Origin: Amoebophrya sp. A120
Lineage: Eukaryota; Protista; Dinoflagellata
Assembly (NCBI GenBank): GCA_905178155.1
Contig: CAJINV010000015.1
Coordinates: 395,309 to 459,308 of the forward strand
Length of the DNA: 64,000 nucleotides
Direction of reading: 5' to 3'
Below are positions 813 through 62,676 of this stretch, one piece after another (within the stretch, counting starts at the first letter, position 1; each line of letters starts with the position of its first letter). The notes under the pieces are model-generated. The model saw nothing but the letters and a program-made list of their open reading frames with translations, ran no database searches and was not told where the DNA came from. The translations under genes and the position numbers were made by a program.

Positions 813-1390
813 GGCGACTTGACGTCGTTCCACCTTTTCGCCGCTCCGTGTTCTGGCGGCTGGTTGTGGTACTGGCACTATGTATAAGTGGTTGCTATCA
901 AAGGATGATGCGTCGCTTCTAGGTATAAAATTTACTCATTTCCTTATTGTCCGCAAAGTGCACACTATGCAAGAAAAAAACTGTGTAAGTAGGTGTAAGT
1001 TTCTTCGCAGATCGCTGCGAAACCTTGGAAGGAAGAAGATCAGCTCTCACTACGTATCAGTAAACATTGGTGGTTTTACCAGCGTCTCAGTTTCGGTTTC
1101 GAAAAATCAAATCCGGAAAAGAGAAAAGCTCCTGTGCACAAAGTTTATTTTGGTTTTTATTTCCTCCAAAATGTCAATTTGTATTGCCGCTGCCAATTAG
1201 CATCAACAGCGGGGCAGTGATGTCATGATCTCAATTTTTTCAGCAGCTGCGCCAGTACGCGTACTCAGTGAACATTCTGCGCGATTCGTGATCAATTTTC
1301 TACTACTCCCCTCGAAGATGAGTGATCCATTTCTTTTGTAGTGATCCATTAATTTCTATCGTAGTGATCCATTTCTATTCTCAATAGTCT
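1..1390. repeat. Segmental tandem duplication, copy of about 4690-6230 (5' half of the gene plus upstream region)
   Basis: Colinear similarity including non-coding sequence, e.g. gccgctgccaattagcatcaacagcggggcagtgatgtcatgatc in both copies. Confidence 0.9.
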
Positions 1391-2149
1391 CGAAGTATGA
1401 CTATGAACATTCTGAAGCACTTAGCACCTGTATCCGGAACGGCAACTCTTGACGCATTTCGCTCTTTTGTAGACAGGGACGGAGTAGCAGTAGCGACGCG
1501 CGCTGCTTCCAAATCGGGGCGAACACATGAAGACTGCTCTACTCTACTGAAGCTAGTGTGTGCGAGGCATAAGCCTTGCGCGTTGGAATCTTCGAAAGTA
1601 CAGCGCTATAATTGTGCATCTTGCTACTTCGAGCTGGTTGCGCCTCTGGAAAGTGCAGGAACAGAATGCACACCAGTGAAGCTGCGCTGAACCCTATTCC
1701 AGAACGCGCAAGCAGGCGGAAACCACGTCTCCCCTGCATACGACTGATTTTCTTCGCAACAGCAACAGCACCCTACGTTTGTCGTGTTCACAGCATTTCA
1801 CTCTTCAGAATGCCTCATACGTAGAAAACTTCGGAATCGCTACTACTAATACTACTAGAAAACATAGCGTCATCAAATCAAATCAAATAGTTTTCAAGTC
1901 GCCTAGTGCAACGAACTCGAGATTCTACCCAGGGCTACAAGGGTAATCGCTCGCCAGGGGCACCATCAACAGAAGGAAGATTGGGAATGACACGGGCCAC
2001 ACCAAAGTGATTGCGAAAGAAACCTTTATTTCTGCCACAACTCAGGTTGTCATCATCATACATCATCTTTCTAGCATAGGGTAGGATTGCAAAAAAGGGT
2101 TGATTGGGAGGATGTCGCTATTCAATGATCGGCGCTACATTTTTATGGG

Positions 2150-2506: not shown

Positions 2507-5500
2507 TTACCGACACTGGTACTCCTTATCCGGGACGCCCGGCCAGGAGACCCCTGAAACCTCCTCGTAACAATTATCGAATGCAAATATATGTCTGGGT
2601 CGTCTGGAAAAGCAGCGCGAGATCTCTCATGCAGCTTTTGCCCGACCCGGATCTTCGTCGGGCATGGCAGACCTAGCATCACAGATTGATAATGATTTCG
2701 AGCAGGTCTCCAAATGTTGCCTAATGCGCCCCTCTTTCGGTATACAGAACAAATGCGCCCCTCTTGCTGGCCATGCATGGCAGATTTTGTCATGATCTAG
2801 AATAGTTCGCATGACAAATTGCGATGCTCCTTTCAGACCCAGACTACATATTTGCCATGCATAGCAGTTGGCTGCGAACCACTTCCGCTCCTTCCAGTCC
2901 TCCATGTAGTTCCGCCCGTTGAGGTGGCGGGGGATTCCGGGCGGCAGCGGCTCGGTGCCACCGTGGCTCCATCCGCCGCCCGCGCGAGTGCCCGACCAGA
3001 CCTTTTTTACCACGGCGAGCTTATCGATCTCTGGGTCATTCTATCAAATGTAAAAATGTCTGGGTCTGGAAGAGTGCAAGTTTGTCATGCTTGTCTGGCA
3101 TGACTCTGAAATCTGTCATGCACATTACTGAAGAGCCCCACTTTTCTGTCATGCAGAAACGTATTTTGTCATGCAGAATAGGCAACACCTAGAAGCTCAG
3201 AAACTTGTCATGCTGAGCCAGCAATTGTCGCCTCCTCATGATATGCCACACAGCATCACAAGTTTCCAGACCCAGACATTTTTACATTTGATACATTCCC
3301 CGGAAGGGAATAGGCGATTTCGTGGTTGGGAAGCCAGTGGTTTAGTCCGTTGAAGACCAGAAACGCTGCGTCGCCCGGGCCCCCCTGGAGCTGTGAACAC
3401 TCCCACTTTCCGAAAACATCGCCTTTTTTCCGCCGCGCTTGTCGTTCGAAAATCCACTCCGCAGAGTCGATATCCTGTGCAAAAGTATCGTACTCGTAGT
3501 AATTGCATTTATGCATTACCAATTTCTTTCTCAAGGCAAATCAGCATTACAAATTTAATTTGTAGTGCTGGGCTAATTTGTATTTGTAATGCAATTTATA
3601 TATACTAGTACGATGCTTTTGCAGTTCATAGTCGAGGAGACCAGCGAGGTTTGAAGACGTCGAATTGCTGCTCGGAGGTCGTGCACTAGTCTGTGCACGG
3701 TTTGAAAGATCAGAACCCTGCTGACGCTGTGTACTAGAGGAAGTCTGTGTCTGCCCCCCGGCGCTTCGAAACAACGTCCTTCGCGTAGTACTTCCGGCCA
3801 GTGGTTGGTGCCGCGTGAGGGTGGCCTGCTGCAATACCTGTGGCATTTTTGTCACCTTCGCGGTTCTTGGGTCTGCGCGAAGTAAGGAGATGTAGAGGCC
3901 TATCGGCCCCGTGGTATCCCACACGGTGTTTCCGTAGGCGTGCAATTCCACGCGACGGAATATGTGGTAGATCATGTCCCCGAGGAGTAAGTTCAAAGGC
4001 TTCGCCGCGATGAAAGCGTTCATCAAGCCTTGTAATGAGGAGTCTTGATTCGGCCACTTGGGCAACTGCTTGATAGCCGGAAACGATTCGAAAAAATAAG
4101 GGTCTTTGACCCCAAACGAAAACGTGAAGTCCTGGCAGGCGAAGATGACTCCAATGTCGTCCTTGTTTTGCATTTTTTCCTCCGCAACGACCGTGCCCGT
4201 GACCGGGTCTCTCGTCTCTTTTCTTGGGGACCGGAACTTTTCCGTCCCGGAAAACGCCATCTCCAACAGCTTGTCCCAGCCGACGAGCGGGGCGAGCTTC
4301 CAGTCCATGTATACCCCCCCTTCCCGGTACAGGACTAGCAAGCGGAACAAATCGGATTTCATGGTGTAGATATCGAACGCATCGAATGCCCAGAGCATCT
4401 CCTTTTTGTAATGCTCCTGCAGGTACTCTCTGGCCGCATTCAGGTTGAAGAACTTCACTTCAAACTCCTTTCCCGGTCCCGCGTTCAACTTGGCCCACTG
4501 CGCAAACCCTTGTGTTTTCTCCGGATCCCGCCAGTTCTGATACCGCAGAAACTCGTCCAAAGTCACATCCTTTTCGTCAAAAAACGCTGTGAGAATCAGA
4601 GTTCGCGGAATTTTCGTCTGGACAGGAGGTGCGGGAGGTGGTGGTGTAGTTCCACTTCCAGGTGGAGCTGCAGATGGAGCAACACCAATATTTTTTTTGT
4701 AGAAATTCCTTTCCACGTCATCAATCGAGGCTTGGGTCAAAAAGCCGTGGTATTTCTCGTGCATCATCCCCACTGGATCCTTAACGTTTTCTAAGTCCTC
4801 GGTTGGCCACACCCCCGGGCCATCTTTGTAGTCGATTTTCTCGTGGCGGACGCGGTGTTTCTGCAGGTTCTGTCGTGGAGAGCCGCCCAGCAGGTTCTGT
4901 CGTGGAGAGCCGCCCTGCAGGTTCTGTCGTGGAGAGCCGCCACCGCCATCGTCGCCACCGCTATCGCCACCACCGCCATCTTCGGGACCACCGCCATCAC
5001 CACCACCGCCATCTTCAGGACCACCGCCATCACCGCCACCGCCACCACCGTCATCGCCACCACCGTCATCGCCACCACCGCCACCGCCACCACCGCCCCC
5101 GCCGTTAAATGGCCACCCCCATTCTCGATTCGAAACGCATTCTCCTTTTCTCCTCCATCTCGTGTACCAAGATTCACTCCAACCGTCGAACCAGGGAACG
5201 AAAATCAAAACGCAAGCACCGCCTCCTGCGAGGACGAGAAATAGGAGGAGAAGGATGAGCACGACGCAGTTTTTTGTGCAGGAGCACTGGCAACAGCCCC
5301 CGCGGGACGAGGGGGTTGTTTCATCAACATGCTCCATCTCCTGTTCCTGATCTGCTGCACCTCCAGCATCTTCAACGTGTCCCACCGCGTTCGACGTCGC
5401 ATTAGTATCCACTAGGACAACTTCATCTCCCGCACTCAGCAGTAGAGCCGCATTCTCGTTCCGGGCGGCCGCAGGGGGGTAGTACGTGGAGATCGAGTTT

Positions 5501-5562
5501 TCAACATCTCCTGCGGGAGCCTCCATTCTGGGTCGTGGATCATCTCCACGACGGGGCACCAT
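2507..5562 (-). CDS. Type II membrane glycosyltransferase, GT32/DXD sugar-binding (OCH1-like) family; 3 introner introns
   Basis: TM helix, Gly/Asp stem, then KIPR..., KSDLFRLLVLYREGGVYMD, NAFIAA and TTGP motifs. Frame restored by removing 3471-3630, 3042-3293 and 2575-2863, each plus 5 nt. Start and 3' end are approximate. Confidence 0.85.
2575..2863. mobile_element. Introner family A (TIR TATCAAATGYAAAWRTGTCTGGGTCTGGAA)
   Basis: TIRs; diverged DR acaat/gcagt. Confidence 0.8.
3042..3293. mobile_element. Introner family A
   Basis: TIRs; DR cattc. Confidence 0.92.
3471..3630. mobile_element. Introner family B (TIR TAT....TGCAAAAGTATCGTACT.GTA)
   Basis: TIRs; DR gtcga. Confidence 0.92.
4862..5100 (-). 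repeat. Coding 27-nt tandem repeat x3 (GGSPRQNLx) plus Gly/Asp codon repeats
   Basis: ggttctgtcgtggagagccgcc x3; only one unit in the paralogue. Confidence 0.85.
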
Positions 5563-7237
5563 GGCGCCTTGACGTCGTTCCACCTTTTCCTCGTCGCCGC
5601 TCCGTGTTCTGGCGGCTGGTTGTGGTACTATGTATAAGTGGTTGGTCAAAGGATTATGTGTCGCTTCTAGGTAGAAAATTTATTTCCTTGTTATTGTCGT
5701 CCGCAAAGTGCACAGTATGCAAGAAAAAAACTGTGTAAGTAAGTGTAAGTTTCTAGCAGTTACTGCTAGATGAAACTTTCTTCGCAGATCGCTGCGAAAC
5801 CTTGGAAGGAAGAACTTTTAAGACTTTTTTACAATAAATTTTTAGTTTATGGTAAATCATGCTGGATTAGCTTTCACCATGTATCAGTAAACATTGGCGG
5901 TTTTAGCAGCGTCTCAGTTTCGGTTTCGAAAAATCAAATCCGGACGAAAAGAGAAATGCTCCTGCGCACAAATTTATTTTTTGGTTTTTATTTCCTCCAA
6001 AATGTCAATTTGTATTGCCGCTGCCAATTAGCATCAACAGCGGGGCAGTGATGTCATGATCCCAATTTTTTCAGCAGCTGCGCCAGTACGCGTACTCCGT
6101 GAGCATTCAGCGCGATTCGTGATCAGTTTTCTACTATTTCCCCCGAAGATCATGAGTGAAGATCCATTTTTTTTGTACGTGATCCATTAAGTTCTATCGT
6201 AGTGATCCATTTCTAATTCTATTCTCAATAGTGATAGTCTGTCTCACGACGGCACCGAGAGAACTTTTCCTTGCCTCCAGCAAGTAGAGAGAAGCAGAGA
6301 GCAGTTTGTTCCTTGAGAAGACTTTTCGATCTTGATTTTGTTCTCGAAGTCGCAATCCCCAGTGGTAAGTAGATACAAATAACTGACTATGACAACAACG
6401 AGCAGGAAATTGTCACCTGCCTCAGTCGTGGTCGTGCTTGATTTCTATATATTTATTTCTTTACGTCTTTAGTGAGCAAGTGCAAACAAGGCTTGATCTT
6501 CGTGCTGTGGCCAAATTACGGAAAGCGGAAAAGAAAAAGCGCCCCCTGCGATTGGCGAAATGCGATTTCTTTCAAAAAGAACAGAAAAGTTGGAATCCTC
6601 TTCCTGCCTTTGTATCGACGCGTTCATTCCTATGTACCTATTTCGTGAGCAACCACGTATCGACAGCTGGTCCCTTATGCGCGAAGATTTTTCTTGTCGT
6701 GATAGTACAACAGGTATCAATAAAGATATATAAAACTTGATGTTGTAGCAGCTGATGGTGATGACACAATGCGCATGCGGTGCCGCTTCGCGGTTCATCT
6801 GCGCCGTGCCGCTTCGCGGTTCATCTGGTGTGGTGGTGCAGGTCAATTCAATGCAGTCCTGGTTTTAGAATGTCAGTCTAGAATGTTTTTGCACTGATTA
6901 ATTTGCTTTTGAAAAACAAAAACTTTTAAAAACGAGAAGAGGTGTTGATACAACATATATAATGCGATCTACAGGAGCTTGAAATTCCTGCGACGATAGA
7001 TCGATCGAGGCTCGTCTTTGCCTCAACTTACATGTTATCTGGACAAGAATACAACTGTAGACCTTGTCCTGGCATTGGGATATACTAGGGTCTCTACGAA
7101 AAACGGCCTGGGAGTGGTGCGAGTGTTGAAATCATGCGCATATTTTACAACAATCGCGAATAAATTGTTGTTTTTCCTCACACTGAAGCAGTGCTCGGTC
7201 TCGTCACAGCGAGGGCAAATAAGTCCGATTTCCTTAC

Positions 7238-10200
7238 TATCCTGGAGGAGGAACTTCTTGATGTAGAAGTTCTTGCACAGGCCTATCCGATATCAAATGC
7301 AAATATGTCTGGGTCCGGAAGGCTGCCAGGTTTGTCATGCAAATCCTGTATGATCCATGACGCCGGCGTTAATGCATGGTCTAGCATCACAGATTTTTAG
7401 AGGGCTTCCTAATGCGTGCCCCGCATGAGAAATGCCCTCTTCGCGTAGGACAAGCCCGACCCTTCTTGCTGGTCATGCAATGCAAATTTTTTTACAATCC
7501 AAAGACAGCATTACATACAAATTGCAACCTTCCAGACCCAGACATTTTTGCATTTGATATCAGCACTGCTCACCACGTTACTGCAGTCGTGCCAATATGA
7601 AATGCAAAAGCATTGCACTTCTAGTATAAATCACATGACAAATTGAAATTAGCCCAGCATTACATCAAATTGAATTTGTAGTGCTGATTTACCTTGAGGA
7701 AGAAATTTGTGATGCATAAATGCAATTACTACGAGTACAATACTTTTGCAGTGGATAGCCAGGCCTGGTAAAATTCATCCTCATCTCCCCCGTCTACTGC
7801 TCCGCGAATCGCAGCGCGAACTGATATGCCATCGTTTCCCTGCCGTACGAGCCACAAAACCATGGCTCGCAACAACGGGCTGAGCATCGTGAAAGGGTGA
7901 AGGAGGGTGAGGGTTTTCTGAAGTTCGTAAGCCTGCTGCGGCGGGATCGGGAAAGGGTCGTTTTGACCATGATCGTGGCGGGCCCCTCGTTGCTTGGATC
8001 TTCTCCGTGTGGGGTCGTTACTAGGTGGACCCACATCTTCCATATTTTGTACTGTCTGCTCTTCAGGATCAGGAATTTCAGCTTTTTCAGCAAGATCGTG
8101 CCTACTGTGAAACACTTGTTCACCTCGTCCAAGGGAAGCAGCACCTTCATCTGCTGCATCTGGCGGCGGGGCCGCTTGTGTTGATCCGGAAGACCTAGTA
8201 GTTTTCGCGTCACGGATAGAAGTTTTTAACTTCGCGTTCTCCCATACCCCGAGTAGGACCCCTTCTATCGGCTGGGTGTGAACGGGAAAGCAGGTTGATA
8301 AGTCCTCGCTGGAAGTAGTATCCTCATGCTCATCTTTCAGCAGATATTCTTCCATGCTCAGGAGAACGCCGACGCCTCCACTTCTGCCATCTTCAAAACC
8401 TTCAAAACTAGTCGTTTCCTCTGTGTAGTCGACATGTTCCTGCGCAGGATGGCACGACCACAGGCGCTCCTGGCAAAAGAACATGGCGTCATCTACTGCG
8501 CCCGCCCCGCCGGGAACGTATTGGTTATTTTCATCATCTAACGGCGGGGTTTCTCCTTGCTCCACCTCCGCGTCGAAGCGGCCATGTCGTTGCCCTCTAT
8601 CCTCCGTCTTGCCCACCAAGAACTGTCGGGAGGTCCGCCGTGGTCGTCCGCCAGCAGACTTTTCTCCTTGTTCTATCCTGAGTAAAAACGTCCCCACACC
8701 AGAGTTGTAATGCAGATTTGCGTAGACAGGAAGACTTGTAATGCGCATCCCCATGAGAGCCATTTCCAATCGTGTATTGGAATTTGTGATGCTGTGAACA
8801 GGATGAGCAGATGAATCTGTGATGCGGCTGCAATTGCTAACCTGCACTACACTGCGGAGTGCAACTTGTCATGCGTGACTCACAAAACTCCTAGGTTTGT
8901 GTTGCAAAATCCCCATCCTGACTCTGGTGTGGGTACGTTTTTACTCAGGATATGTTCCACGCACCGCCGCGGCAGAAACTGGAAATCCAGAAACCCATTC
9001 GGCCTGCTATGGTGTTCTCAAACGTTACATTCTCAACTGTTACATGAATTTGTAATGCAAGACTAGTTCAGGTAAGAGGGAGAATCTTGCGCGTCTTGCA
9101 TTACAGGTTTGGTGCGGACTACAGTGCTATTTAGCCCTCCGAGAACTTGTCATGCGAAGCAGCTTGATCGTCTGGCGGGTCGTGGTCATTTTGCATGACA
9201 AATCATGTAACAGTTGAGAATGTAACGTTTGAGAACCCCATACCTGCAGGTGGATGAGGATCTTCTTCTCGTTGATCTGTTTTCAAGGAAGACGCTGCGT
9301 TTCGGTTCATCCTGGGAAGTAGATTATGCATTGCAAAAGTATCGTACTAGTATAGATGCATTACAAATTTTCTCAGCATGAGAAATAAAATTTGTAATGC
9401 TGATTTGCCTTGACAAAAAAATTTGTAATGCAAGACTTGCATTTATACGAGTACGATACTTTTGCACAGGATATAGATCTTTCATGTGCAAAAGCCGCGA
9501 CTTTCTGGCAGTCTTCGATTCTTCTATCCAACTCCGTGTTGAAGTGAACAACGTAGAGCGCGTATCAATCGTAAATATGTCATCTGGGTTTGGAAACTTG
9601 TGATGCTAGTTTGTGAATTGATGTGGGGGCACTCCTGTTTATTTTGAGTGTGTGACACGACACTGCAATACGCCACCACGCATGACAAGTTTTTGAGCTC
9701 CTCCGTGTTTTGCTTTCCGCATGGCATCAAACTGCGTTTATTTTGCACCACAGCAACGAGGCTTTTTAATATTTCCTGCTCGTGCATCTGCATTTTTACA
9801 GACATAACAGTCATGTGAGGCAAGCAGGACAAGCTTGCGTTCTTCCAGACCCAGACAACAGGTTTGCATTTGATAGCGCGGAGTAGAACAACAGTGTGCC
9901 CAGAAAAAATTGTTTACTTTTGGAATTGCTGGTCTGGATTTTCTTGTTCATTTTTTCCCTGTGGGCGACCCGCAAATGTTCTTTGCGCACAGTCGCTGCA
10001 GTTTCCTTCTTCGCGTCCCTTCTCGCTTTGTTCCTCGCTGCAGCGGCTGTCAGCTGGGAATTTATTTTTGCACCAGATGACCTGATGTTATTGTGCTGTT
10101 GCTGTGTCGGCTGTACCTGCTGTAGCAGCTTCGGGGTTCTTGTCTCCTGGTCGTGAATATCAAATGCAAATATGTCTGGGTCTGGAAGATTTCTAGATTT

Positions 10201-13200
10201 GTCATGCATATTTTCCATGACCCATGACGTCTGTGATGCATGCCGTAGCATCACAGGCTTTTAGAGACCCTCCTGATGCCTATTCCGCATGAGAAATACC
10301 CTCTCCGCGTAACACAAACTGGACTCCTGTTGCTTGTCATGCAATACAGACTTTTTCGGAATTCAAAAACAGCATTACAAGTTCCAACCTTCCAGACCCA
10401 GACATTTTTACATTTGATAGTGAACATTGGGGGCTCGTGCTGAAGACGAGTCGGGGGCAGAGCTAGATATAACCTGCTCAGGTGTTACAATCTCAAACGT
10501 TACAATAGAATCTTGAATTTGTGTTGCAAGAAGTGCGTTATCTGTCCAACTCTCATAGGATTGCGCATGACAAGTTCTGGAGTCCCAATCCGCACTACAA
10601 TCTGGCGAAATTTGTATTGCAGAAAGTGGAATGCTGTCGGAATCTGTCATGCTCATCATGCAATACAAAACCCAGACTCTATTGTAACGTTTGAGATTGT
10701 AACGTTTGAGCAGGTCATACTAGAGCTACCGATTTTCCATTTCACAAACGCTTGCAGCGTCTCCATGATGAAGTGCTGATTCCCGCTTGCACTTGCTCCC
10801 TGCTCTCTACAATTTCTGGGACCACCACACGGCGAGGAGATTATAGTTCGTGCGGTACTGTCACTAGAAGGCGCGGCTCCTGAACCAGCTGGACTTCGTC
10901 CAGGTTTTGCTCCTCCTAACAAGTTGTCCATTGTTCCGTTGAAGAACATGGCGACCAGCTTTCTGGCCCAATGGGTGAAAAAGTGCTTCAGTTTTGCGAT
11001 CATCTGGCTCAACACATACCATTTTCGCTTCTGATTTCCATTTTTGCACCGGGTCGTGTCGTCCGCATTGGGATTTGGTCCTCCGCCCGTTCTGTTCGCA
11101 TAGATGAACCGATCCAACGCTCGGAAAAGCATCTGCTTCAACTGGAACAGCAAACGCAGAACCTTCTTTGCCCGAGAGATGTGAAAGAGTTTTTGAGCGT
11201 ACAGCCCGTGGCGCGACGATGGAACCGTCCTCGTGCTGGAAGGTGGTTCTCTTGCAGATCGATGTTCCAGATAATTATCCACGTGAGCCGCAGCCCTAAT
11301 ACTTGCAGCCGCGGCCCCTTGTTGTGCTGACGAGACGGGTAGAGGTTTTGCCCTCTCCTGCTCCTCTGCGAGGCGCTTTAAGGTTTCCGCAATGTGTTTT
11401 TTTCTCCTCTTCCCTCGGCCAGTAACAGAGTCTGGGCCGAAGTAGCCACGCGGAATCTCTTCGCCGCCGTCAATGAGGGGAAATCTCGCTTTGGAATGCC
11501 GCCTCCGCGTATCAAATGCAAAGAGACTTTGACTTGTCATGCACTTTTTGCGTGAGCCATGATGTCTGTGATGCATGCCGTAGCATCACAGATTTTTTTT
11601 TCGAGGGGTTCTTGATGCCTATTTCGCATGACAAATGCCCTATCCGCGTAGCAAAAATTACATTCCCTTTGGTGCTACTCATGCAATACAGATTTTTTTG
11701 GAATCCAAATGCAGCATCACAAGTTGCATGCTTCCAGACCCAGATGACATTTTTGCATTTGATACCGCGCAGCGTGGTCCAGCTTGGCCTGCTTTTTTGC
11801 CTCCGCAACCCGCTCCTGCGTTTCCGCTGGGGAGAGATAGGCAGGCTGCGGTTCTTGTGAGGCTGCTTTTGGCCCCCGGTCATCAACAGCAACGGTGGCT
11901 CCTGCACCCGGTCCTCTTGGCGGTGGATCTGCCACGAAACCCGGTCGTGCTTGTTTATCCCTTGGGACCTGAAGTCGCGGACCTAGGCTCCTAAGTTTTT
12001 CCCGGGCGGATGCGAAAGTCGACGTTCTCGGCTGCGCAGCGGCAGTGGCGGAATCTTCGCCCGAAGAAGTCGTGGTGGGAGAGGCGGCGAACGAAGACGC
12101 TGATACACTTTGCTGGCCGCACGACCTTATGAAATGCGAAAGCATCGTACTAGTATAAAAATAAATCGCATGACAAATTCCCTCAGCATGAGAAAGATGT
12201 AATGCGGATTTACCTTAAGAAAAATATTTGTAATGCATGATTGCAATACGAGTACGATACTTTTGCACAGGATAGACCTGTCGTCCAGTTTCGCTAGGCT
12301 CATATGCCACGGGACCGTCTTGCTCCGCTGTAGGCCGCCCTTGGCAGACTTATTTCCTGCTAATTGTTCATCTAGGGCGCTGCTGGTGCCATCGCCAGCA
12401 CCGTGTTTTTGTTTCATCGCAGCAAAATTTTTACCACCAACTACACCGAGGCACAAGGGGCTGTTGCCTCGCATCAAGGGCCTAAACCCTAAGCCCCCTT
12501 CTTCCTCGTCTTTCGTTTCATCATTTTCACTCGGGAGGACGATAGAACTTCTATCTCGCAGTAGCTCCAGCTTACTCAGCATCCGCATGTCGTCTGCCAG
12601 TGTCAGCATGTCGTTTGGTACGGGTGTAGGAGAAACTTTCTTATGCACATCGTCGAAAGAAGATGAAGAACCAGCAATACTGCATTCGCCGAGCTCTTCG
12701 TCGTCGCCAACATCGGAAAATGATGATGAGGACGATGGGGACGAGAGATTTGAGGAGTCCTGCAACAGGAACTCCAGAGCGGAAAGATCCTGCGGAGTTG
12801 TACGCTGAAAATTTGCTCGGCTGGCTACCGACGGATTGAATTCGATCTTCTCGGTCTTGACGCTCCCATCCTCGGCCTCGTCGAAGGTAACACGACGCTC
12901 CCGGGGGTCCTGTTGTACTGCGAGACTGTTCGAAGAACAGGAAGCATAGGATCCTGACGTACTTGAACCAGCACCAGAACCTTCTCGTTTCAGAATCGAT
13001 GGCTTGTTCATTGTCGTTCTAGCAGCAGCAGCAGCAGCGGGCCCTCGTCCAACATTATTAGGCTGCAAAAGCCTACAAGAACTACCCGGTTGACCAGCGA
13101 ACGATGCTTCTGCAGGACGGCGCGCTGCTTGATGTTCTTGTGCCTCCGTGTGCTTTTTCAGGAGTTTCTGTAGCTGGTCCGCCCACTGAACATCTGTAGC

Positions 13201-31242: not shown

Positions 31243-31575
31243 CATTGGCGAGCAATAGCTCTCCTGCTCGGATGAACGAAGAAACGTTTTCCGTGCTTCT
31301 GCTTCTCAATAAAATACGTACGCATGATCTACTTCGCCCGTTGTCCGAAGTGCTGACCACCCTTCTTCTGTTGTTTTGCAGTCCAGTGGTCCCCGATTTC
31401 AAAAAAAATGGCCTCGTGAGGCTTGCTGGTGTTGGTGAACGTTCAGGGGGAATGGTTATGGTGGTGCGTTGAATATAACGAGCAGCTTAATGACGCACTT
31501 GTTTTTCAACAAGAAGAGGGGGCCGGGGTCTACAACTCAGACTTACGACAGCGGGTTACTAGGGTAATGCAATTC

Positions 31576-31858
31576 ATAACGAGAATAGCTGTCGAGTAGC
31601 TAGATATTTTCAAAGTCATTCGCTAGCTGTTAAAAGTAGGTACTTGTTTCCATTCTATTTACTGTGCTATTAGCACAATGAGCTAGCTAGTCTGAATGCT
31701 GTCGCGGATGCGTCGACGCATCCGTGACAGCATTCCTACTAGCTACGTATATTAAATATCTATTCCGCACCTGAAAAGGTGGCATTGAAAGCATGCTTTT
31801 TTGAAAGCTAGCTAATGACTTTGGAAATTCTTAGCTACTCGACAGTTATTCTCGTTAT
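31576..31858. mobile_element. Intergenic foldback/MITE with TIRs of about 55 nt and a central 42-nt palindrome
   Basis: ataacgagaatagctgtcgagtagcta...tagctactcgacagttattctcgttat; centre gaatgctgtcgcggatgcgtcgacgcatccgtgacagcattc (31694-31735). Confidence 0.8.
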
Positions 31859-32128
31859 ACGTGAAATGTCAAAGCTAGCTAGACATTTATTTTGACGGCC
31901 AAAAACATCTACATCACACAGAACACACCTCGTGTTTTTGGTAATTGTTGCCCATCATGCGCGTGCGGCCATGATGATGCGGCTACCAAAGTGATCGTAA
32001 CATCGTGGCCACAAGTATTTACGTGCAACAGCGAGCTAGGCCCAGCATTCCAGAGCAGTGGACACTTCGTCGCGTCCGCGATGACTGATCAAACATCAAT
32101 GACACTCGTCTTGCTACTGGCAAGGCAT

Positions 32129-35406: not shown

Positions 35407-38400
35407 TTAGATTTCTTGAACAACAACCCCAGTCGAACTGCTTCCGAAAGAAGTACTCTCTTCTTTCTCGTCCCTGCTTGAAGATGTGGCTTTCGTTACC
35501 CTGTCACCGCCACCACCTACCCTTCCCGTCCGCAGCAACACCACCGCCAGGTAGCCCCAAACCATCATATCCTGTGCAAAAGTGTCTGGGTCTGGGAGAT
35601 TCCGAGACCTGTCATGCAGATTTTCCATTATCCATGTCGTCTGGAATGCAGCACCTAGCATGACAGATTCTGTGAGATCCCTATTATGCCTATCCTGCGT
35701 GAGAAACTCCCTGCCAACTTGGTCGAAAGTGGACAGCTTCTGGCACTCATGCAACACAGATGCTTGCATGATCCAGAATTAGCATGACAAGTTGCAACCT
35801 TCCAGACCCAGGCATATTTGCAATCCATACATCACTGCGCCGAGCAACATGGTGCTAGAAAACCCCGAAACTTTCCGCAACCACGCGCCGAGCAATATGG
35901 CGTTCTCAACTGTTACATTCTCAACTGTTACATGAAGTTGTGATGCAAGAATGGCACAGGTGAGAGGGAGAACCTTGCGCGTCTTGCAATACAGATTTGG
36001 TGCGGATTCTAGTGCTATTTAGCTCTCTGAGAATTTGTCATGCGAAGCAGCTTCATCATCTGGCGCCTGCGCCTCATGGTCAGTTTGCATGACAAATCAT
36101 GGAACGGCTGAGAATGTAACGTTTGAGAACCCCATAAGCAACGGCCCAATAATCAAGCCGAGCTGGGTGAAAATGTTGAACAAAGCGACGACCTGTTCCG
36201 TCACGGACTCGGTGTTTGTGTTGTTGGTGTTTTCGGATTTTTGCATAGGTTGCCCGTCTTGCAAGTTGTGGATTCCGCTATCCTGCGTTTGCTTCATGGC
36301 AGGAAGCGTTGGCACGAGTAGCAACGCCTGTCCCAGACCGAGGAGGACCAAAATCACCGCTTCAATAACTGTGCACTCTTGTAGTTCATCAGTCGACGTT
36401 CTTCTTTCGTCACTTCTTCCCTCGCCCAGCAGAACTGAGTGATACAGCCCCAGCAGCAGCAAGCAAAACCCGGACACCCCCGCGCCCAGCTTCAGGCTCC
36501 GGAGATACAGTTTCTCCCGGTCCGCAATGGTGCCCGCCGGAACGCCGCAGAGACTGTAGGAGATGGAAAGAATGGCGTACATGTAGCCGATTTGGAGGAC
36601 GTCTAGATGGAGAAATTGCTTCGCGTGAATCGCGTAGATGGGCTCAACCAGGCCGAAAACGAAGGTTCCGAGAAAAAGAAAACCGGCCGGAATCAGTATC
36701 CTGCGCAAAAATGTCCCCACCTCCCCATAGTCAAGTTGGTAAATCTGCAACACAAATCCCCAAAGTTTTGGGAGTTGTGCATGACAAGTTTCCATCTGCA
36801 GTGTAGTGGTGGTTGGCAACGGAAGCCGCATGACAAGGCCACCTTCGTTCTCATCCTGTTTACAGCATGACAAGCTCCAAAACAAGATATGGAAATGACT
36901 CTCATGGAGATGCGCATTACAAATGTTGCACTGTCGTTGCACATTTGCATGACAACTCTGGGGTGGGGACGTTTTTACTCAGGATAATCAGGATTGCGAA
37001 GTTGTCTTTTGCGAGCACAGAGTAGAGGTTGATGTTAGACGTCGTGGCTTCCTCCTCCTTAGTAATCTTATCCGCGTTCTTGGTGTACGAAGGAGTACGA
37101 GTAGGAGTCTGTGCTGCTTGTTCTTGCTCCACGTTCTTGGCGTCCACTTTGGCTTTCGCTAATGGAGGTTGGACGAGGCTGTTATCTTTATTCCCCGGCT
37201 CCGGCTGCACCAGACTTCGATTTAATATTTTCCGGTTGCTCCTACTTCCCAGCTCAAACCACGCGAGCAAAACCACGACCGGGACCGCGACAAACAGCAT
37301 CAAGCATCCCGACACCAAAAACGGGCAAGAAAACGAGCCCCCGATGAGTTCTAGCCAGGACCCGATCGGCGGCCCGCAAGAGAACCCAACGCCGATAATA
37401 ACTTCGTTTCACCTATCCACAGTAAATCAAAATTTCCCACACGACACGACGATGTACAAATGCGGTTTCTGGATTTGACAAAAGTTTCGTTCAATCCTCA
37501 ACTTAATACTTGACGAAAAAATATATTTGTAGTGCATATTTTGCACATGCACGTTGTGTGCAGCAGGAAATCAAAATTTGTATTGCGTATAACCCCATGA
37601 CCAATCCCAGGTCGTCCACAAACCGGTCGGCCACCATACTGAAGATTGCGAGATTCGAAAACGCTTGGCCGATCCCACCAAGCAACCTTGTAAAAATCTG
37701 GAGGTAAAGGACAAATTCCGGGTTGGAAGCAAACCAGATCGGCGTGTAGCCGAACAAAATCGCGGAGAGCCCCTGCAGCAAGAGACCGAAGAGAAGAATC
37801 GTAATGCGGGTTTTTGTCGTGGAACTGGTGTAGTTGCTCTTCGTGGTTTTCATCTGCGCGTCGACAAGATCCTTGCCTGTTCTTTCGGTGGTAGAAGTGG
37901 TAGAAACCGTAGATGTACTAGTTTCATCTTCACTGTTCTTACTACTAGATGAATTTTTCGCCGCAATTTTTTCGCTGATCACCGGGGTGAAGAGCAAAAC
38001 CGCAACGGAGTAGACCGCAAACACCGACCCAACCCACGTGACGTCGATGTTTAACTTAGCATACTCCGCGGGGAGGATCGGCGCGATCTATGCATTGCAA
38101 ATATGTCTGTGTCTGGAACAAGATTCCGACATTTGTAATGCAGTTTTTCCAAGCAACCCCAGGTCTGGAATGCAGAGCCTAGCATCACAGATTCATTGCG
38201 CAGCCTCTTGGTCTTGGTGATGCCCATCCTGCATGAGAAATGCCCTTTCAACATCAGCATGGCCAGAAGTGGGCACCTTTATTTGCATGCCATGCATCAC
38301 AGATCTTTGTATGATCCGCAACACGCATCACAAGTTCGGATCCTTCCAGACATCCAGACATATTTGCATTTGATACGATCAGGCTGCACACGATGTTCGA

Positions 38401-44727: not shown

Positions 44728-47700
44728 CTACGCCCAAACCGACCTCCCCTCGCGGTCACCCGGCTTGAAGGATATCGCACGAAATAAAACTCTGGTCTTT
44801 CGTCTTCACTGTGACAATTGCTTTCTTTTGGTATTTCATGACGTCGCACATGACAAGCCTGCTCTTGCGCATAAAACCAAAAATCTGTCATGCGTGCAGT
44901 TTGAATAGCGGAAAAAGACAACAGGCAGAGGGACGAATAAATCCTGCTGTGCAGCTCGTGCTTTATTTATTCCAGCATGCAAGACAAACTACACACCATA
45001 TCTCGGCTTGCATCTGCAACTGCCTCATCTTCAACACACGTGCACAGTGAACAAGGAGCAGACGTTCTTTTTTCCTGCGATACAAGAGAAACCCATATCA
45101 AATGCAAAAGTGTCTGGGTCTGGAAGGTTGCGAGATTTGTCATGCTTGTCTGGCATGACCAAAAAGTTTGTGATGCGTGTCCAAGAAGAGACCCTTTTGC
45201 CTTACATGCAAAAACGAAGCTGGTAATGCGAAAAACGCAACACAAAGAGGCGCAGATATTTCTCATGCTTGACTGTGCATTACAGAGCATTCACTATTCC
45301 CAACGCAGCACTACAAGTTTCCAGACCCCGACATTCTTACATTTGATAACCCACGGCGTTATCCCGGAGCCCGCGGTTCCAGCCACCCATGCGGACGCGC
45401 ATACCCTGATGTAGTTAATTTCGCGGTTCCTACGCATGATAGCGAATCCTCGTCATAGACACAATGCTCACACAAAATGAAGCTGGAAGCCGTTTTCTCA
45501 AATTACTGTATTATTCAAAAAGTTTATTTCTTGTTTTAATAATAAAATACGTCCTGCTGCTTGCCTTGTCCTTTACCCTTGCCCTTTCCTCCCTTTCCCT
45601 TGCCCTTAAAGCCCTTGCTGTTTGCCGTGACGATTCCCATACCGCTATCCTGTGTAAAAACGTCCCCACCCCAGAGTCGTCATTCAATTCTGCATGCTGA
45701 AGATGTTTCTCATGCGGAGCCCCATGAGAAGGATTTTCTAATCGTGTTTCGGAATTTGTCATGCTCCAATCAGCACGATGTGCTAGATGCTAGTGAACTG
45801 GCTAAACAGGATTACACTCCGAGACCAAACTTGTCATGCGCAACAGCCAAGCCTTGTGGATTTGTCTAGCAGATTTTCCATCTTGACTCTGGGGTGGGAC
45901 GTTTTTCCACAGGATAACCGCCCTTCTGACGGGGGGCGTTCGCGTATCGTGTGCGATTAAAGTGTCGGACGTCTTCGCTGTAGATGTCACGGAAGCCGCC
46001 CTCGCCTTTGTTCTGCCCTCGGTTGTTGCCATAACCTGTCAACGATTTGTGATGCGGGAAACGCGTTGTCTCGTGCGTACTTACTTTAGCATGCGGAACT
46101 ACATTCATAGTAAGTAGACGATTTCTATGTCGTCCAACGCAGGACAGATCCAGATCCAGCATGACAGATTGAATGCTTCAGTTTCAATAACTTCTTGGTG
46201 AATTTGTCATGCAATTTGCAGTACTAGTACTAGTTACGTACCTTGTCCTCCCTGTCCGCCCTCCATATTTTTCTGGTAATGCCCAGTCTTGTATCACGAT
46301 GGACAACTTCCCCTAGATCTGGCTTCCAATTTTTTCTTGTCATGCGAAATTACAATTACAGCACTAGCCTTTGCTTTCAAGGCCTGCAGTACAAGCTGCA
46401 GTACCACTTCAAACAAGACAAGGAGTGCTACAGTCTGTTCCTAGAGAAAAAAATTTCGTCATTATTCAAAAACTACGATTGAATTTGTGCTGCTGTGTCG
46501 CTTCGCATCAGATCTGAATCAAGCGGGATCGTCGAGAAGGAGTTGTCCTCTGTCATAACTTGTAGTCGACCGCCCGCTCGTGCTGGTCCAGCCCGTAACT
46601 GCACTTGTCTGCCAGGGTCAACGCCAGCCGCTGAAAATTGGTTTGCGAGTCCTCGGGTCGGACGATGAGGATGGAACTGGTCTTGTCCCAGGCAAAGGGT
46701 ACTTCCTGGTCGTTTATGCTTTGCAAAAAGATCATCGTACTAGTACAAAATTGCATGACAAATTTTGCCAAGAAGGAAAGTGGAATTTGTAATGCTGTTT
46801 TGCCCTAGCAAAATAAATATTTGCCATGCATATTTGCAATTAGTACGAGTACGATACTTTTGCACAGGATACCGTTGATCATGCGGCTGCAAATGCTGTG
46901 GATCTTCTCCTTCTATGAACTGCAAAAGTATCGCACTCGTATAAATGCATTACAAATTTCCTTAGCATGAGAGATAAAATTTGTAATGCTGATTTACCTT
47001 AAAAGACAGATTTGTGATGCAAGACTTGCATTTATACGAATGCGATACTTTTGCAGAGGATACCTTCGGTAGTTCGAACATTTCCGTCAACTTATCGCAC
47101 GGAAAAATCCCCCCTCTCTTTATCGAAAATGCACACCTGAGAAAATTTGTGATGCTTACTTATGGCCGCAAATTGTGTCTGTCTTGCAAGAAAGCAACGG
47201 CAAAGGCTCTGCCCCATTATGCAGGCGATTTGTAATGCTACTCGGCCTAGTACAGTGTAGACGCTCCTCATGCTTAAGTGCTTAGGCCACAACCTCTCTA
47301 CATTGGCATGATATGGGCCTGCAGTCCCCTAGTGCAAGACAAATCTGATTTGTGTACGCAAATCCAGCATCGGAAATTTCGGTTTGATGTGGGGACGAGG
47401 GGGGATTTTTCATTTTAATACAACTGCTTCAGGTCCAACGACTCGTAGCTGCTGGAATGCTTTAAACAGTAGCACCGGATGGCCTGCTCCTTCACCAATT
47501 GTTCCAGCAACTTCATGTCGATCAAGTCCGGCAGAAACTGCACCTTTGCCAGGTGCTGGTGCACGGCCGACTTCCAGTCCCCACGCATGACCGCCAGGGC
47601 CGTATGAAAGTGCACAACTCCTCCCCCCCTCATTTATGAAGCAAGAACGGCAATACAACCGTCAGCAAGAATGCTGTTTTTGCATGACGAATTTGCACAA

Positions 47701-58660: not shown

Positions 58661-61600
58661 TCAAATTGTCCCTCCTGCAGCTTTCGGCGACGCACTCGGG
58701 ACCGGACTCCGCGCCATAGCCATCTGGCGGACAGGGCTTCCTGCACCACCCGAGGACGACTCCTGCGCTAGCAGCACCGTCGCGTCGCGGAGCTGGGAAT
58801 TGGGCGACGGGTTGTAGCTACCGGCGACAGGAGGGACGTCGATAGGGAGGCCGTTGTTTACACCAGGCGAAACGACCGCCGATTCCGCCTTCGCACTACC
58901 TTTTTTCATCTGCTTTTTATTCACCACAAACGGCAGATCCAGCTCCACCCACACTTCCTTCAGCACCTTCACGAAGTACTCCAAATCTTCATCCGAATGC
59001 AGCGGCCCCGGCGTCACCCGGATCCGCTCCGTGCCCCGCGGCACCGTCGGGTAGTTGATGGGCTGGATGTAAATCTGGTGCTGTTTCAAGAGTAAATCCG
59101 TCAACTGTTTGCACTTAACCGGGTCCCCGATGAACACCGGCACGATGTGGGAGCTGTTTTCCATGTAGGGCAAGTGGTTCTTCTGCAGCAGTTTCGTCAG
59201 ATATTTCACCTGCTTCTGTTGCCCTTTTATGAACTGCAAAAGTATCGCACTCGTATAAATGCATCACAAATTTTCTCAGCATGAGAAATAAAATTTGTAA
59301 TGCAAGTTTACCTTAAAAAGAAGATTTGTAATGCATGATTGCAATACGAGTACGATACTTTTGCACAGGATACCTTTTCGCTCCTTGTTGGACTTTTTCA
59401 AGTGCTGGACGGACGCTAGGGCGCCGGCCGCGACTATCCGAAGCAAAAACGTCCCCGCCCCATAGTCAAGTTGGGAAAATAGCAACACAAATCGCCAAGT
59501 TTTGGGAGCTGCGCATGACAAGTTTTCCTCTGCAGTGTAGTGCTGGTTGGCAAGGGAAGCCGCATGAGAGCGCCATTCTCTCAACCTGTTTGCAGCATTA
59601 CAAATTCCAAAACACGAATGGAAAAGCCTTTCATGGAGCTGCGCATTACAAATGCTCCTGTCATTGCGCATTTGCATGACAACTATAGGGTGGGGATGTT
59701 TTTCCTGAGGATAGCGACCACCGGGGGAACCGCGGTGGTGAAGATGAAAGACGACGCGTAGGAACGGACGCAGTCGATGTAGGCGGAGGAACTGTGTGTA
59801 AAACAAAGAGTCCGGGTACGGGTTTAGTCGTGTCATTTCATTTGGTCATGCTTGCTCATGCATCAACACATAGCATACATTCATAGATCATAGTATCATA
59901 AAGGATTTACAAGAACCTCAAGCCTATGTAATATACCCAGCGATGTATCCGCCGAACGCGCCAAACGCCTTGCCAAGCGTCCCGGTGATGATATCGAGCT
60001 CCAAGCCCTCCCTCTCCGCAATCCCGGCTCCCCGCTCTCCGTACATCCCGACGGCGTGCACCTCATCGCAGAAAGTCAAGCAGTTGTACTTGTTGGCCAG
60101 CTATGCATTGCAAAAGTACTATCGTTGTACTGGTAGAAATTGCAATACAAATTGGCTCAGCATTAGAAATCAAATCTGTAGTGCGGATTTCCCTTAACAC
60201 CTAGATTTGTAATGCATAAACTGCAATTAGTACGAGTGCGATACTTTTGCAATGCATACCAACGCGACAATCTCCGCCATTTTCGCGATCGACCCCGACA
60301 TGGAGTACACGGACTCAAACACGATCATTTTCGGGTATAACGTTCTCAACTGTTACATTCTCAATTGTTACATGAATTTGTGATGCAAGAATGGCAAAAG
60401 TGAAAGGGGGGTCCTGCGCGTCTTGCATGACAGACTTGGCCCCGATTATCAGCCTGCTTGGCCCTCTGCGAATTTGTCATGCGAAGCAGCTTGATGGTGT
60501 CGATTCTGAAGGCAATTTTGCATGACAAATCCATGTAACAGCTGAGAATGTAACAGTTGAGAACGCCATATCGGGTGCTCGAGCGGGTATTGCTTCAACA
60601 ACTTTTCCAAATCCTCCATGTCGTTGTGTTTGAAAATGTGCTTCTTACACTTCGATATCAAGTGCAGAAGTGTCTGGGTCTGGAAACTTGTAATGCTGCA
60701 GTGGGAATAGTGAATGCTCTGTAATGCACAGCCAAGCATGAGAAATATCTGCGCTTCTTTGTGTTGCGTGTTTCGCATGACAAACTGCGTTTTTGCATGA
60801 CAGGCGAAAGGGTCTCTTCTTTGACACGCATCACAAACTTTTTGGCCATGCCAGACAAGCATGACAAATCTCGCAATCTTCCAGACCCAGACATTTTTAC
60901 ATTTGATATTCGACTGCCGCATCCCGTCGATCATACTTGCGTGGTTGTCCGCGTCGGAGAACAGCACCAAATCCGGAATCAGCTTCGCAAACACCTGTAG
61001 CGACGCTTCGTTCGCGACGAAGCCGGAGGAGCAGACCAGCGCTTTCTCCATGTGGTGCAGATCGGCTAACTCTGTTTCCAACTCAACGTGAAAGCTTGTC
61101 GTGCCGGAAATGTTGCGCGTACCCCCCGCGCCCATGCCGGTGGAATCGAGCGCGTCGTGGGCGGCTTTCAACACTTTCGGGTGCTGCCCCATGCCGAGGT
61201 AATCGTTGCTGCAGAAAATTTTCACCACGGAGGGAAAGCCCTGGTTAGTGGCGTTGTTGTTTTCCTTGACTGACTTCTTCTTGCCCAGTTTGGTCGTGGA
61301 AGCTGGGGGGGTTGGAGATGAAGATGAAGAAACAAGTCCTGGGATGTCACGGCAATTCGCCGAACTGCAAGTAGTCGAGCTCGATGACGAAGTGCTCCCG
61401 CCGGCGGTACAAGAGCCCGGATCTCCTGGTCCGACATTGTCCTGCCGAAACACCGCGTTCGGAAACTGCCCGCATTGCCGCTGGAGATTTGCGAAGTGGC
61501 GGTACCGACCCTCCGCGTGGAGTTTGGAAATCGCCGATTGGAACGTTTTCGAATACAGTTGCTCCTTCATCTTGTGCTGCTCCCAGCTGATGTTGTGGTA

Positions 61601-62676
61601 ATTCGTTGAATTTTGGGATTTGAAATCCGAAATTGTTGCAGTTTGGCTCTTCACTTGTTTCGTCGGGGTCTGCAACAGATTAGTTTCTTGTTCCTCCTCC
61701 TCACTTTTCAACAACGGACAGCACTTCGCCGCGGCGGGAAAAGCGTTCAGCATCATTTGTTTCGTGTCTTCCGGAATCTTTCCCGTCTCCATGATCCGCT
61801 CGATAAGGGTTTTATTGTTGATGTTGTTGCTGGTGTTGAACGGAGTGGAAGTTGCGGTAGATGCAGCATTTGTCGCTTGAAGATGTTGAAAAGAGCCAGC
61901 CCCTTGAAGATGTCCTCCTCTCGATTTGTTATGCGGCCCCGCAGCTCCAGCAGCGTTGTTTTTGGCGTTAAATTGCTGCTGTTCCAGCGGCGTCATGAAC
62001 ATGTTGGACCCCAACATGAGGAACGGGCAACCGCCGCTCGCGCTGTGTCCTCCGGCGCTGCTCGCGGGGATTGGTGGGTGGCCGGGGGGAAGATCTTGGA
62101 CGAATTTCGGTTTGGTATTATTTCCTTGTTGCGTTTTTGCCGTGGTTTTGATAGTTCCAGCACCTGTAATCCCGTTCGTGTTTGTAACGGCATCGGTTTG
62201 AAGATGCAACTGTTGGTGTAGTCCTACTCCAGAAGCACCTCCGGCAGTATCCGATCCGGCACGGCTACGGGCAGTTGTCGGAGTAGAGGTCACCGTCGAG
62301 GCGGGGGTGGCGCAGTTGGTCGTGTAGTCCAGGTCATTCTTGATCACGACCTTGTCCTGAAATTTCGAGACCACCGGACACATCGACGCTTTGGCTTCCA
62401 ACTGAGCGGTGCTGTTGTAGAAGAGGGGTTTGTCTTGATGATGCGTTTGTGTTTAATAAAATTGTGTATTGCAAATGCAAAAATGCGAAGTCATGTTTGT
62501 GTTGGATGAGACAAAAGGCATCTTTGAAGCAGATCAAAATGATTGTCATACATCTTCCCAATGTTGTCTCCGGACGATTTCAGCAGCTGGCGCATGAAGG
62601 GACACAAGTTCTGCACGTCCGACAAGTTGTACTTGTTTTTCAGCTTCGACGTCAAAGCCTGCGCAGCCGCCGACAT
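58661..62676 (-). CDS. ALAS: 5-aminolevulinate synthase (mitochondrial, PLP-dependent); 7 introns
   Basis: CP heme-regulatory motifs; [63 protein letters not shown] and [14 protein letters not shown]. Confidence 0.97.
59228..59372. mobile_element. Introner family B
   Basis: TIRs; DR ccttt. Confidence 0.92.
59435..59713. mobile_element. Introner family C
   Basis: TIRs; DR gcgac; restores [11 protein letters not shown]. Confidence 0.92.
59792..59936 (-). other. Canonical GT-AG intron (ALAS)
   Basis: GG|GTATAT...ACACAG|T restores GGYIAGSSAYID. Confidence 0.88.
60102..60258. mobile_element. Introner family B
   Basis: TIRs; DR ccagc/ccaac; restores IVALANKY. Confidence 0.92.
60336..60570. mobile_element. 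Introner family D
   Basis: TIRs; DR tcggg; restores [13 protein letters not shown]. Confidence 0.92.
60656..60908. mobile_element. Introner family A
   Basis: TIRs; DR ttcga; restores [19 protein letters not shown]. Confidence 0.93.
62454..62503 (-). other. Putative 50-nt non-canonical intron bounded by a 9-nt direct repeat
   Basis: gtttgtgtt at 62445 and 62495; removal fuses the ALAS N-terminal ORF to the main ORF in frame. Confidence 0.6.

Follow-up and report, generated by a model that had tools for sequence, protein, structure and literature searches.

A shared octamer in Amoebophrya introners

The octamer TGTNATGC is the core of a ~13 bp site, AAYYTGTVWTGCD, that is repeated at fixed helical spacing inside all introner families in the DNA analysed here, a 64,000-nucleotide stretch of the Amoebophrya sp. 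A120 genome (the window) and a wider set of copies. The arrays probably represent the subterminal DNA-binding repeats of one shared putative mobilising protein, either a transposase or a partner that the transposase cannot do without, whose binding, identity and chemistry we infer; the probability of this reading is put at roughly 0.55.

The window contains 217 matches to TGTNATGC, compared with 10.28 expected from 100 shuffles (shuffle maximum 21). The middle base is C in 106 matches, A in 57, G in 53 and T in a single one; C never directly follows the octamer on its 3' side (0/217), and the sequence upstream is A-rich, followed by two pyrimidines. As the sequence-only reading had proposed, the octamer is concentrated in elements and rare in exons: 190 of 216 exact sites fall inside 61 elements (14,607 bp; 13.0 per kb) and one within 24,651 bp of exon ORF, with none in the long exon 12275–15042. 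The other 25 sites lie elsewhere, 15 of them within element remnants detected by profiles. Every delimited element (61/61) carries at least one exact octamer, in a set that comprises the 60 elements of a TIR and TSD search, minus 57322–57448 (removed for a weak TIR and the lack of an octamer site), plus 46292–46557 and 55328–55495; 31575–31859, which has a TIR and neither a TSD nor an octamer site, is left out of the count.

The individual sites described earlier are largely reproduced. All five octamers reported in 3042–3293, starting at 3083, 3114, 3147, 3167 and 3206 (+), are present together with an additional one at 3253 (-), and the positions of the family-B pairs with 31-nt spacing, 12198/12229 and 46982/47013, are correct. 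Four positions given for 60656–60908 also hold (60775, 60795, 60828 and 60859, -), but the fifth, 60736, is a one-mismatch site, GCATGAGA, and not an exact octamer.

The elements are introners removed from transcripts

The window elements start with TAT and end with ATA, with a single mismatch in a few of them, and lie between copies of a 5-bp duplication, which is perfect in 50 of the 61. A scan for the family-A TIR returned 173 stretches, which correspond to 159 loci totalling 670,832 nt; the extra loci listed all derive from one other assembly, maybe of the same species, are biased towards family A, and add copies rather than an independent lineage. These loci contain 326 strict elements, compared with none in 410 kb of shuffled control. 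The TSD is 5 bp in all 326 and is 6 bp or longer in none, in a search that demanded at least 5 bp, and A occupies end positions 11, 12 and 13 in 566, 589 and 612 of the 652 ends, in a search that demanded TAT. The elements are short, TIR-bearing, non-coding and multicopy with a fixed-length TSD, and can be classed as MITEs by these features.

When each element is cut out together with 5 nt, long open frames reappear on the minus strand, one of them running for 1,840 codons through ten elements; a cut of +2 leaves the frame unchanged and scores equally well. A DXD glycosyltransferase, eIF3c and 5-aminolevulinate synthase (ALAS) are among the host genes. The glycosyltransferase gene is broken by the introners 3471–3630 and 3042–3293, and excision of the latter plus 5 nt restores an 876-codon minus-strand frame. 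The ALAS frame, whose closest named relatives are from Hematodinium, Perkinsus, Vitrella and Oxyrrhis, is broken by five introners (starting at 59228, 59435, 60102, 60336 and 60656) and by a GT..AG intron, 59792–59936. RNA-like contigs carry 447 nt where the ALAS genomic sequence has 1,686, and their pieces end at element borders; the missing 1,239 nt equal the five elements with 5 nt each plus the one 145-nt GT..AG intron, removal of which also restores the ALAS protein. These contigs come from runs X3 and X4, taken as RNA by guess, and were compared through summed lengths and piece ends over 44001–64000, so that removal of 3042–3293 is deduced from its frame only. Contigs of run X1 stop inside elements or read through them, and the raw RNA run X9 yielded solely reads of paralogous elements.

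The manner of removal appears to be non-canonical. Ends of the form G[TCA]..AG occur in 19 of 251 elements in any of six registers, which is about the chance rate, and do not mark the elements as spliceosomal; a search of Rfam gave no match. The RNA fold of 3042–3293 is dominated by the terminal stem formed by its TIRs (z -9.5). Because the TAT-N7-A-run ends, the direct repeats and the non-canonical removal all agree, the window elements are very likely the published introners of Amoebophrya A120. Features mapped in the window are listed in Table 1.

Table 1. Introners, octamer sites and host genes mapped in the window.
Feature	Coordinates	Strand	Evidence
Family-A introner, MITE-like, TAT..ATA ends, 252 bp	3042..3293	+	30/30 TIR, perfect 5-bp TSD
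Left TSD, CATTC	3037..3041	+	sequence
Right TSD, CATTC	3294..3298	+	sequence
Left TIR: TAT, 7 variable bases, A-run, family-specific part	3042..3071	+	sequence; closing stem of RNA fold
Right TIR	3264..3293	-	sequence
Octamer site 1, position 42 from left end	3083..3090	+	motif match
Weak inverted site GCATGACT, 15 bp past site 1	3098..3105	-	sequence; like the half-site in 31–33 bp spacers of several groups
Octamer site 2, 31 bp past site 1	3114..3121	+	motif match
Octamer site 3, 33 bp past site 2	3147..3154	+	motif match
Octamer site 4, 20 bp past site 3, subfamily-specific	3167..3174	+	motif match
Octamer site 5, 39 bp past site 4	3206..3213	+	motif match
Octamer site 6, facing site 5 at 47 bp; position 34 from right end	3253..3260	-	motif match
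Host gene with DXD glycosyltransferase domain, 3' end approximate	2865..5679	-	PF04488, E 2.8e-8; frame restored
Inverted member of the subfamily of 3042–3293, inside ALAS gene	60656..60908	-	alignment; missing from RNA-like contigs
ALAS reading frame	58664..62452	-	frame restored; RNA-like contigs; named relatives
Family-B introner, sites pointing outward at both ends, 31-bp pair	12128..12274	+	TIR/TSD search
Family-B introner	46914..47062	+	TIR/TSD search
Family-C introner, six sites on one strand only; family gaps 31, 49, 33, 49, 31	8674..8952	+	
Family-C introner, opposed to transcript orientation	36697..36986	-	

One site across otherwise unrelated families

The 387 elements (326 plus the 61 of the window) were sorted into 22 subfamilies of at least three members, which hold 362 of the 387 (25 left out), and these were combined into 11 architecture groups. 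When trained on the subfamily consensuses, a matrix converges on AAYYTGTVWTGCD at 15.6 bits, with 117 sites compared with 4–5 in shuffles; it finds a site in 386 of the 387 elements, and the exact octamer is present in 376. Most pairs of groups show no relationship (z under 2) once the sites and the outer TIR are masked. The exceptions are the two A types (z 13.6), D-D2 (5.9), E-F (3.9), D-I (3.4), H-D2 (3.3), A-H (2.9) and C-F (2.2), and the D-D2 and E-F similarities mean that the 11 groups cannot be treated as wholly independent.

In the 53 larger loci, elements carry 11.8 sites per kb and remnants 8.7; long ORFs carry 0.06 and all other sequence 0.27. Non-coding DNA without detectable introner homology contains 71 sites compared with 24.5 expected, a ~3-fold excess. 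Several GT..AG introns of eIF3c carry the site, some of them with family-B remains, and one of these introns measures 122 nt, the length that an RNA contig requires. The TIR pattern was not found in viral and prokaryote genome collections. A search with the 31–33 bp tandem pattern gave 101 viral loci, none of which matches the family profiles.

Divergence from consensus, measured in 348 copies from subfamilies with at least five members, is 4.4% in the core and 19.3% in the spacers, and the per-column comparison suggested for the motif thus places it well above its surroundings in conservation. Core divergence stays at 0.040–0.054 while that of the spacers ranges from 0.10 to 0.31 across quartiles. 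Within the TIRs of the same copies, positions 11–28 diverge by 6.2% and positions 4–10 by 17.5%. The middle base of the octamer diverges like a spacer (20.4%), yet the change is to T in 24 of 360 cases, compared with 21–45% in spacers, and the base 3' of the octamer likewise avoids C across copies.

This pattern of constraint is as expected of a protein that reads the site, and not of passive ancestry. Descent of all families from one motif-rich ancestor, with the octamer as a passenger, is highly improbable. The families do have the TAT-N7-A-run ends in common and some groups show faint similarity, but a passenger would not account for a core that diverges 4.4-fold less than the spacers or for the base-specific exclusion of T and C, and the masked interiors are mostly unrelated.

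Spacing of the sites follows the helix when orientation is considered

Helical phase was assessed with one representative for each of the 11 groups and 3,000 random placements. Pairs of sites in the same direction share a 10.5-bp phase, with a cos of 0.46 that no random placement reached, and still do so after the 28–35 peak is dropped (cos 0.30, P 0.006). Pairs in opposite directions lie half a turn out (anti-phase 0.40; 0.28 and P 0.003 without 44–51). The predicted periodicity of 10–10.5 nt is thus found across families once orientation is considered, but a plain 10.5-bp period with orientation ignored gives no signal (cos 0.05, P=0.39); the 16.25-bp lattice seen when orientation is ignored (0.46) was picked post hoc.

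Two arrangements recur. A tandem pair at 31–33 bp is present in 9 of the 11 groups, where random placements average 1.55 and reach at most 7 after look-elsewhere, and a facing pair at 45–49 bp in 6 of 11 (99th percentile after look-elsewhere). Between groups, tandem-pair spacers reach 33% identity, compared with 27% when shuffled, an excess attributable to a weak inverted half-site mid-way. Same-direction pairs at 20–22 and 41–43 bp, corresponding to two and four turns, occur in none of the 11 group representatives. The earlier idea of a shared binding code with helically spaced sites is therefore upheld insofar as the sites are constrained and phased across families, but it needs amendment: the phase depends on orientation, and spacings of two and four turns are missing. 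Whether every site looks to one face of the helix would depend on the point at which the protein touches it. The first TGT-first sites lie 33–35, 41–47 or 53–56 bp from the element end, with an end phasing of R 0.72 over 18 group-position pairs that are not fully independent; GCA-first sites are less clearly phased to the end (R 0.51, P 0.09).

The mirrored gaps of 3042–3293 and 60656–60908 do not count as independent support for phasing. Both elements are alignable members of one subfamily, and the likeness reflects common descent only. The 39-bp gap in 3042–3293 is itself off-phase, at 3.7 turns.

The octamer is most simply read on double-stranded DNA

Among 251 elements with a strand call, the net strand of the sites relative to the transcript is 104:85 with 62 ties, which shows no bias, and every family is present in both orientations to the transcript. 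An orientation bias that at first appeared in one subfamily (20:6) shrank to 28:16 (P 0.10) once further elements had been assigned a strand. Pairing between sites in RNA was also considered and rejected: the variable base shows no covariation in 17 inverted pairs (one at P 0.03). The lack of strand bias and of pairing covariation argues against an RNA splice mark, and the octamer is most simply read on double-stranded DNA. Of the alternatives originally put forward, a DNA-level factor such as a transposase or a chromatin protein fits these data, but an intron mark read on RNA is disfavoured.

It is nevertheless conceivable that the octamer is an intron-definition signal on the pre-mRNA, recognised by an RNA-binding protein or acting through base pairing of inverted sites. 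The elements are removed without GT-AG ends (19/251 with G[TCA]..AG), so some other machinery must exist, and most families carry sites in both orientations, so that the RNA usually shows both words. Such a signal is very improbable, since the single-strand families C and I lie both ways relative to the transcript (5:7 for C, 3:2 for I), one inverted pair is mispaired as G/C in 42 of 60 copies, the one subfamily skew shrank as calls were added, and a 10.5-bp phase is a property of the double helix.

A second possibility is that the removal itself takes place at the DNA level, through a domesticated excisase or a polymerase bypass that loops out the element and one duplication in the transcribed copy. 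Ciliates provide a parallel in their excision of IES-type elements. The geometry of the arrays is of the DNA type, the loss of the element plus 5 nt is exact, and a splice consensus is absent; U1 was not detected in A120, according to the available text of the genome study (PMC7789003). This scenario is very improbable, however, because the contigs that lack elements also lack GT..AG introns, as expected of spliced RNA, because the contigs of run X1 end inside or traverse elements, and because empty sites in DNA are not among the observations.

Neighbouring elements cluster without regard to family

Neighbouring elements are separated by 30–89 bp in 92 of 293 gaps, compared with 20–34 expected under four placement nulls (largest 46), and by less than 30 bp in only 2 of 293, compared with 11–19 expected. 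The window alone has 21 of 60 neighbour gaps at 30–89 bp. Members of close pairs belong to the same group in 15 of 90 cases, compared with 18.9 expected; since neighbours share a group no more than expected, the clustering is not due to local copying. Whatever draws insertions next door is thus shared by all families, or by introns generally. No helical phase was found in the neighbour gaps.

Who selects the site

A mobilising protein would account for these features as follows. An oligomeric protein would bind the double-stranded octamer arrays, pair both element ends, cut at TAT and duplicate 5 bp. Selection would act on the site during mobilisation of copies, allowing the TIR interior and the spacers to drift while the code is kept. 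The same bound complex could cause new copies of any family to land 30–89 bp beside an existing one, and removal from RNA would rest on the terminal stem and not on the octamer. Precedents exist in Hermes, whose BED domains sit on precisely placed subterminal repeats (PMC10368747), and in Herves, a second case of subterminal-repeat binding (PMC3143072), as far as the available text of these papers shows.

Several observations count against the mobilising-protein reading. Four long derivatives, which contain filler DNA without Pfam match (the L029 ORFs and L061 being outside the scan), yielded no transposase, and no mobile-element protein occurs among the 110 scanned of 151 long ORFs in the extra loci; this hunt covered ~0.54 Mb, a small part of the genome, whose genes are broken by introners. 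The site is also found in other non-coding DNA (the ~3-fold excess) and in some GT..AG introns, and within elements the sites fill the whole length and point either way at the ends. TIR positions 11–28 are family-specific yet conserved, and in known systems every family has a transposase of its own.

Alternatively, a sequence-specific DNA-binding protein of the host, chromatin-associated or architectural, may bind the arrays; bound copies would be tolerated, co-transcriptionally removed or better mobilised, and their flanks opened to insertions. This is possible but clearly less probable. It would explain why one code spans families with different TIRs, why clustering at 30–89 bp is family-blind and why GT..AG introns and other non-coding sequence retain the site, and it is in keeping with the available text of the A120 genome study, where a transposase is unreported (PMC7789003). 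The non-coding excess can, however, be explained as old remnants, and phasing to the cut end points to a cutting complex.

Decay of old copies bears on both readings: were mobility the sole source of selection, the core of an inserted copy should diverge as fast as its spacers. With a mismatched TSD as the mark of age, the increase in divergence was first estimated at +0.024 for the core and +0.029 for the spacer (64/407 copies), and at +0.013 and +0.030 after improved family assignment (72/426 copies). The core of window copies decays like the spacer (+0.062 and +0.070, from 8/57 copies only), contrary to what a host protein would predict, but outside the window the increases are +0.007 and +0.023, and the weaker decay of the core in the larger set fits the host protein and leaves room for host selection; taken together, the figures are compatible with neutral decay of the core as well as with its full protection. 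A comparison of remnants with intact elements gives two differences, both near 0.005, and is uninformative. Length changes inside the 31–33 bp pairs (0.60 per 100 nt) are not depleted relative to elsewhere (0.63), as expected if spacing matters in the mobile phase alone; spacing that is unprotected in individual copies does not favour the host protein. The same figures also speak against a strong spacing constraint within families.

A rather unlikely further reading is that a single protein, encoded by the host or domesticated, recognises the octamer lattice on DNA, brings together both ends of any introner, guides insertions of every family to 30–89 bp from older ones and licenses the precise loss of the element with one duplication from the transcript. 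If true, introns would be defined by a DNA-bound protein array and not by RNA splice signals.

Amoebophrya has tens of thousands of non-canonical introns. That practically every family carries a constrained site and obeys a spacing grammar points to one system with one reader for their spread. An octamer array could serve as bait for the reader protein, with T at the middle base as a one-base negative control. If the reader is a transposase, it would be the enzyme so far missing from this large-scale invasion by introns; if it is a host protein, it would point to a new way of marking introns.

Comparison with known systems

Introners of A120 have been described as ~240-nt non-canonical introns in co-oriented genes, bounded by TAT, seven variable bases and an A-run, with direct repeats, and divided into 1,954 (or 58) families (PMC7789003, PMC12130899). 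They share their ends, direct repeats, typical length, non-canonical removal and co-oriented host genes with the window elements, and Gozashti et al. (2025) list A120 family 38 as '5-bp TSD, TA/TA termini' (PMC12130899). Farhat et al. (2021) found no transposase in A120 and ruled out general mobilisation by transposases (PMC7789003). The available text of these accounts concerns the ends only and mentions neither a shared internal motif nor a spacing rule (PMC7789003, PMC12130899). The motif had been thought to be undescribed, and it was not found in the publications searched on Amoebophrya introners, subterminal motifs and non-canonical introns. Likewise, the octamer was not found in the searched literature or supplement strings (subscription papers, figures and one supplement file lying outside the search), and the matches listed for it anywhere in the literature, the best 25 of 1,408, are unrelated by title.

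Subterminal repeats in fixed geometry, as seen in these introners, are known from the hAT elements Hermes, Herves, Tol2 and Ac. The Hermes site is 4 bp and element-specific, whereas the introner site is ~13 bp and common to families with different TIR interiors (PMC10368747, available text). The usual hAT TSD is 8 bp, in contrast to 5 bp throughout the introners, and no hAT transposase was found in the sequences scanned. A hAT5 group with a 5-bp TSD is known. IS3EU/GingerRoot elements resemble the introners in their TA..TA termini (PMC10045372) and in a GC-leaning target without consensus (PMC6839031). Their TSD is usually 6 bp, a length never seen in the introners (5 bp in 326/326, with at least 5 bp demanded by the search); GingerRoot TIRs measure 100–150 bp, and subterminal repeats go unmentioned in the available text. 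An integrase-like ORF of this type was not found in the long derivatives or the sampled ORFs. Since neither the 8-bp TSD of hAT nor the 6-bp TSD of IS3EU/GingerRoot applies, the introners are filed under neither group.

Introners of Micromonas and Aureococcus are likewise MITE-derived introns, with chromatin-biased insertion (PMC9860276), but they use spliceosomal sites, unlike those described here. Nonconventional introns of euglenids resemble the Amoebophrya introners in that terminal stems join non-canonical ends (PMC11282704). The available text for the algal and euglenid systems describes no internal binding code that crosses families (PMC9860276, PMC11282704). Introners and subterminal repeats are known; what is new is one site with a spacing grammar that extends across families, and clustering that is blind to family.

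Arrangement and ends of introners

Neighbouring introners in the window and in loci L001-L066, which were fetched from another assembly via the family-A terminal inverted repeat (TIR), are separated by 30–89 bp in 92 of 293 cases and almost never by less than 30 bp, a preference that does not depend on element family. At end positions 4–10, the bases are unlike between the two ends of one copy and do not covary; positions 11–28 show weak covariation in some subfamilies. An RNA stem of the element would close with three pairs, often plus an internal loop.

Four long derivatives span 631–1,104 bp, and those of their ORFs that were scanned yielded no Pfam match. A separate TIR element (window 31575-31859; arms of about 60 bp, internal palindrome) contains neither the shared octamer GCAT(G/C/T)ACA nor a 5-bp target-site duplication (TSD), and probably belongs to another system. 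The window also contains an inverted repeat at 56700-56907, with 100-nt arms that are 82% complementary and an 8-nt loop. Host genes of the fetched loci include a C-5 cytosine DNA methylase (PF00145; L018 2635-6090).

Features of the window and fetched loci
Feature	Location	Strand	Remarks
GT..AG-type intron or candidate, eIF3c	window about 46100-46240	minus	octamer retained
GT..AG-type intron or candidate, eIF3c	window about 49380-49500	minus	octamer retained
GT..AG-type intron or candidate, eIF3c	window about 50582-50703	minus	octamer retained
GT..AG-type intron or candidate, eIF3c	window about 52600-52735	minus	octamer retained
Long derivative	window 27388-28180		normal ends, 5-bp TSD, unrelated filler DNA
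Long derivative	L021 505-1608		normal ends, 5-bp TSD, unrelated filler DNA
Long derivative	L029 632-1465		normal ends, 5-bp TSD, unrelated filler DNA
Long derivative	L061 3862-4492		normal ends, 5-bp TSD, unrelated filler DNA
Tandem paralogous gene segments	window 1-1400 vs 4690-6240		92-94% identical over aligned parts
Tandem paralogous gene segments	window 17305-18900 vs 14500-15500		92-94% identical over aligned parts

Introners and GT..AG introns

Most long reading frames of the window lie on the minus strand. Several of the GT..AG-type introns or candidates in the eIF3c gene have the look of family-B elements in decay, and one of the introns takes its acceptor CAG from the end of the octamer motif itself; these octamer-bearing introns thus suggest a route from introner to spliceosomal intron.

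A short-insertion signature

Across all subfamily alignments, private insertions of 3 nt (n = 197) and 6 nt (n = 63) are far more numerous than those of 2 nt (n = 52), 4 nt (n = 39), 5 nt (n = 26) and 7 nt (n = 8), a strong mutational signature that is present even within introns. A 2-nt repeat plus one base makes up 113 of 192 three-nt insertions, and the extra base is complementary to the flanking base in 109 of these 113 (83.7 expected; P = 2e-10). The pattern amounts to a duplication of 3 bp in which the base at one end is replaced by its complement. It recurs between paralogous gene copies of the window (2-1389 vs 4686-6233; 15218-15503 vs 18589-18885), in 11/11 such cases. Because these insertion sizes are in frame, the signature could be what drives the fast protein evolution that has been reported in Amoebophrya. 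It resembles hairpin-type excision footprints; no description of it was found in the literature searched.
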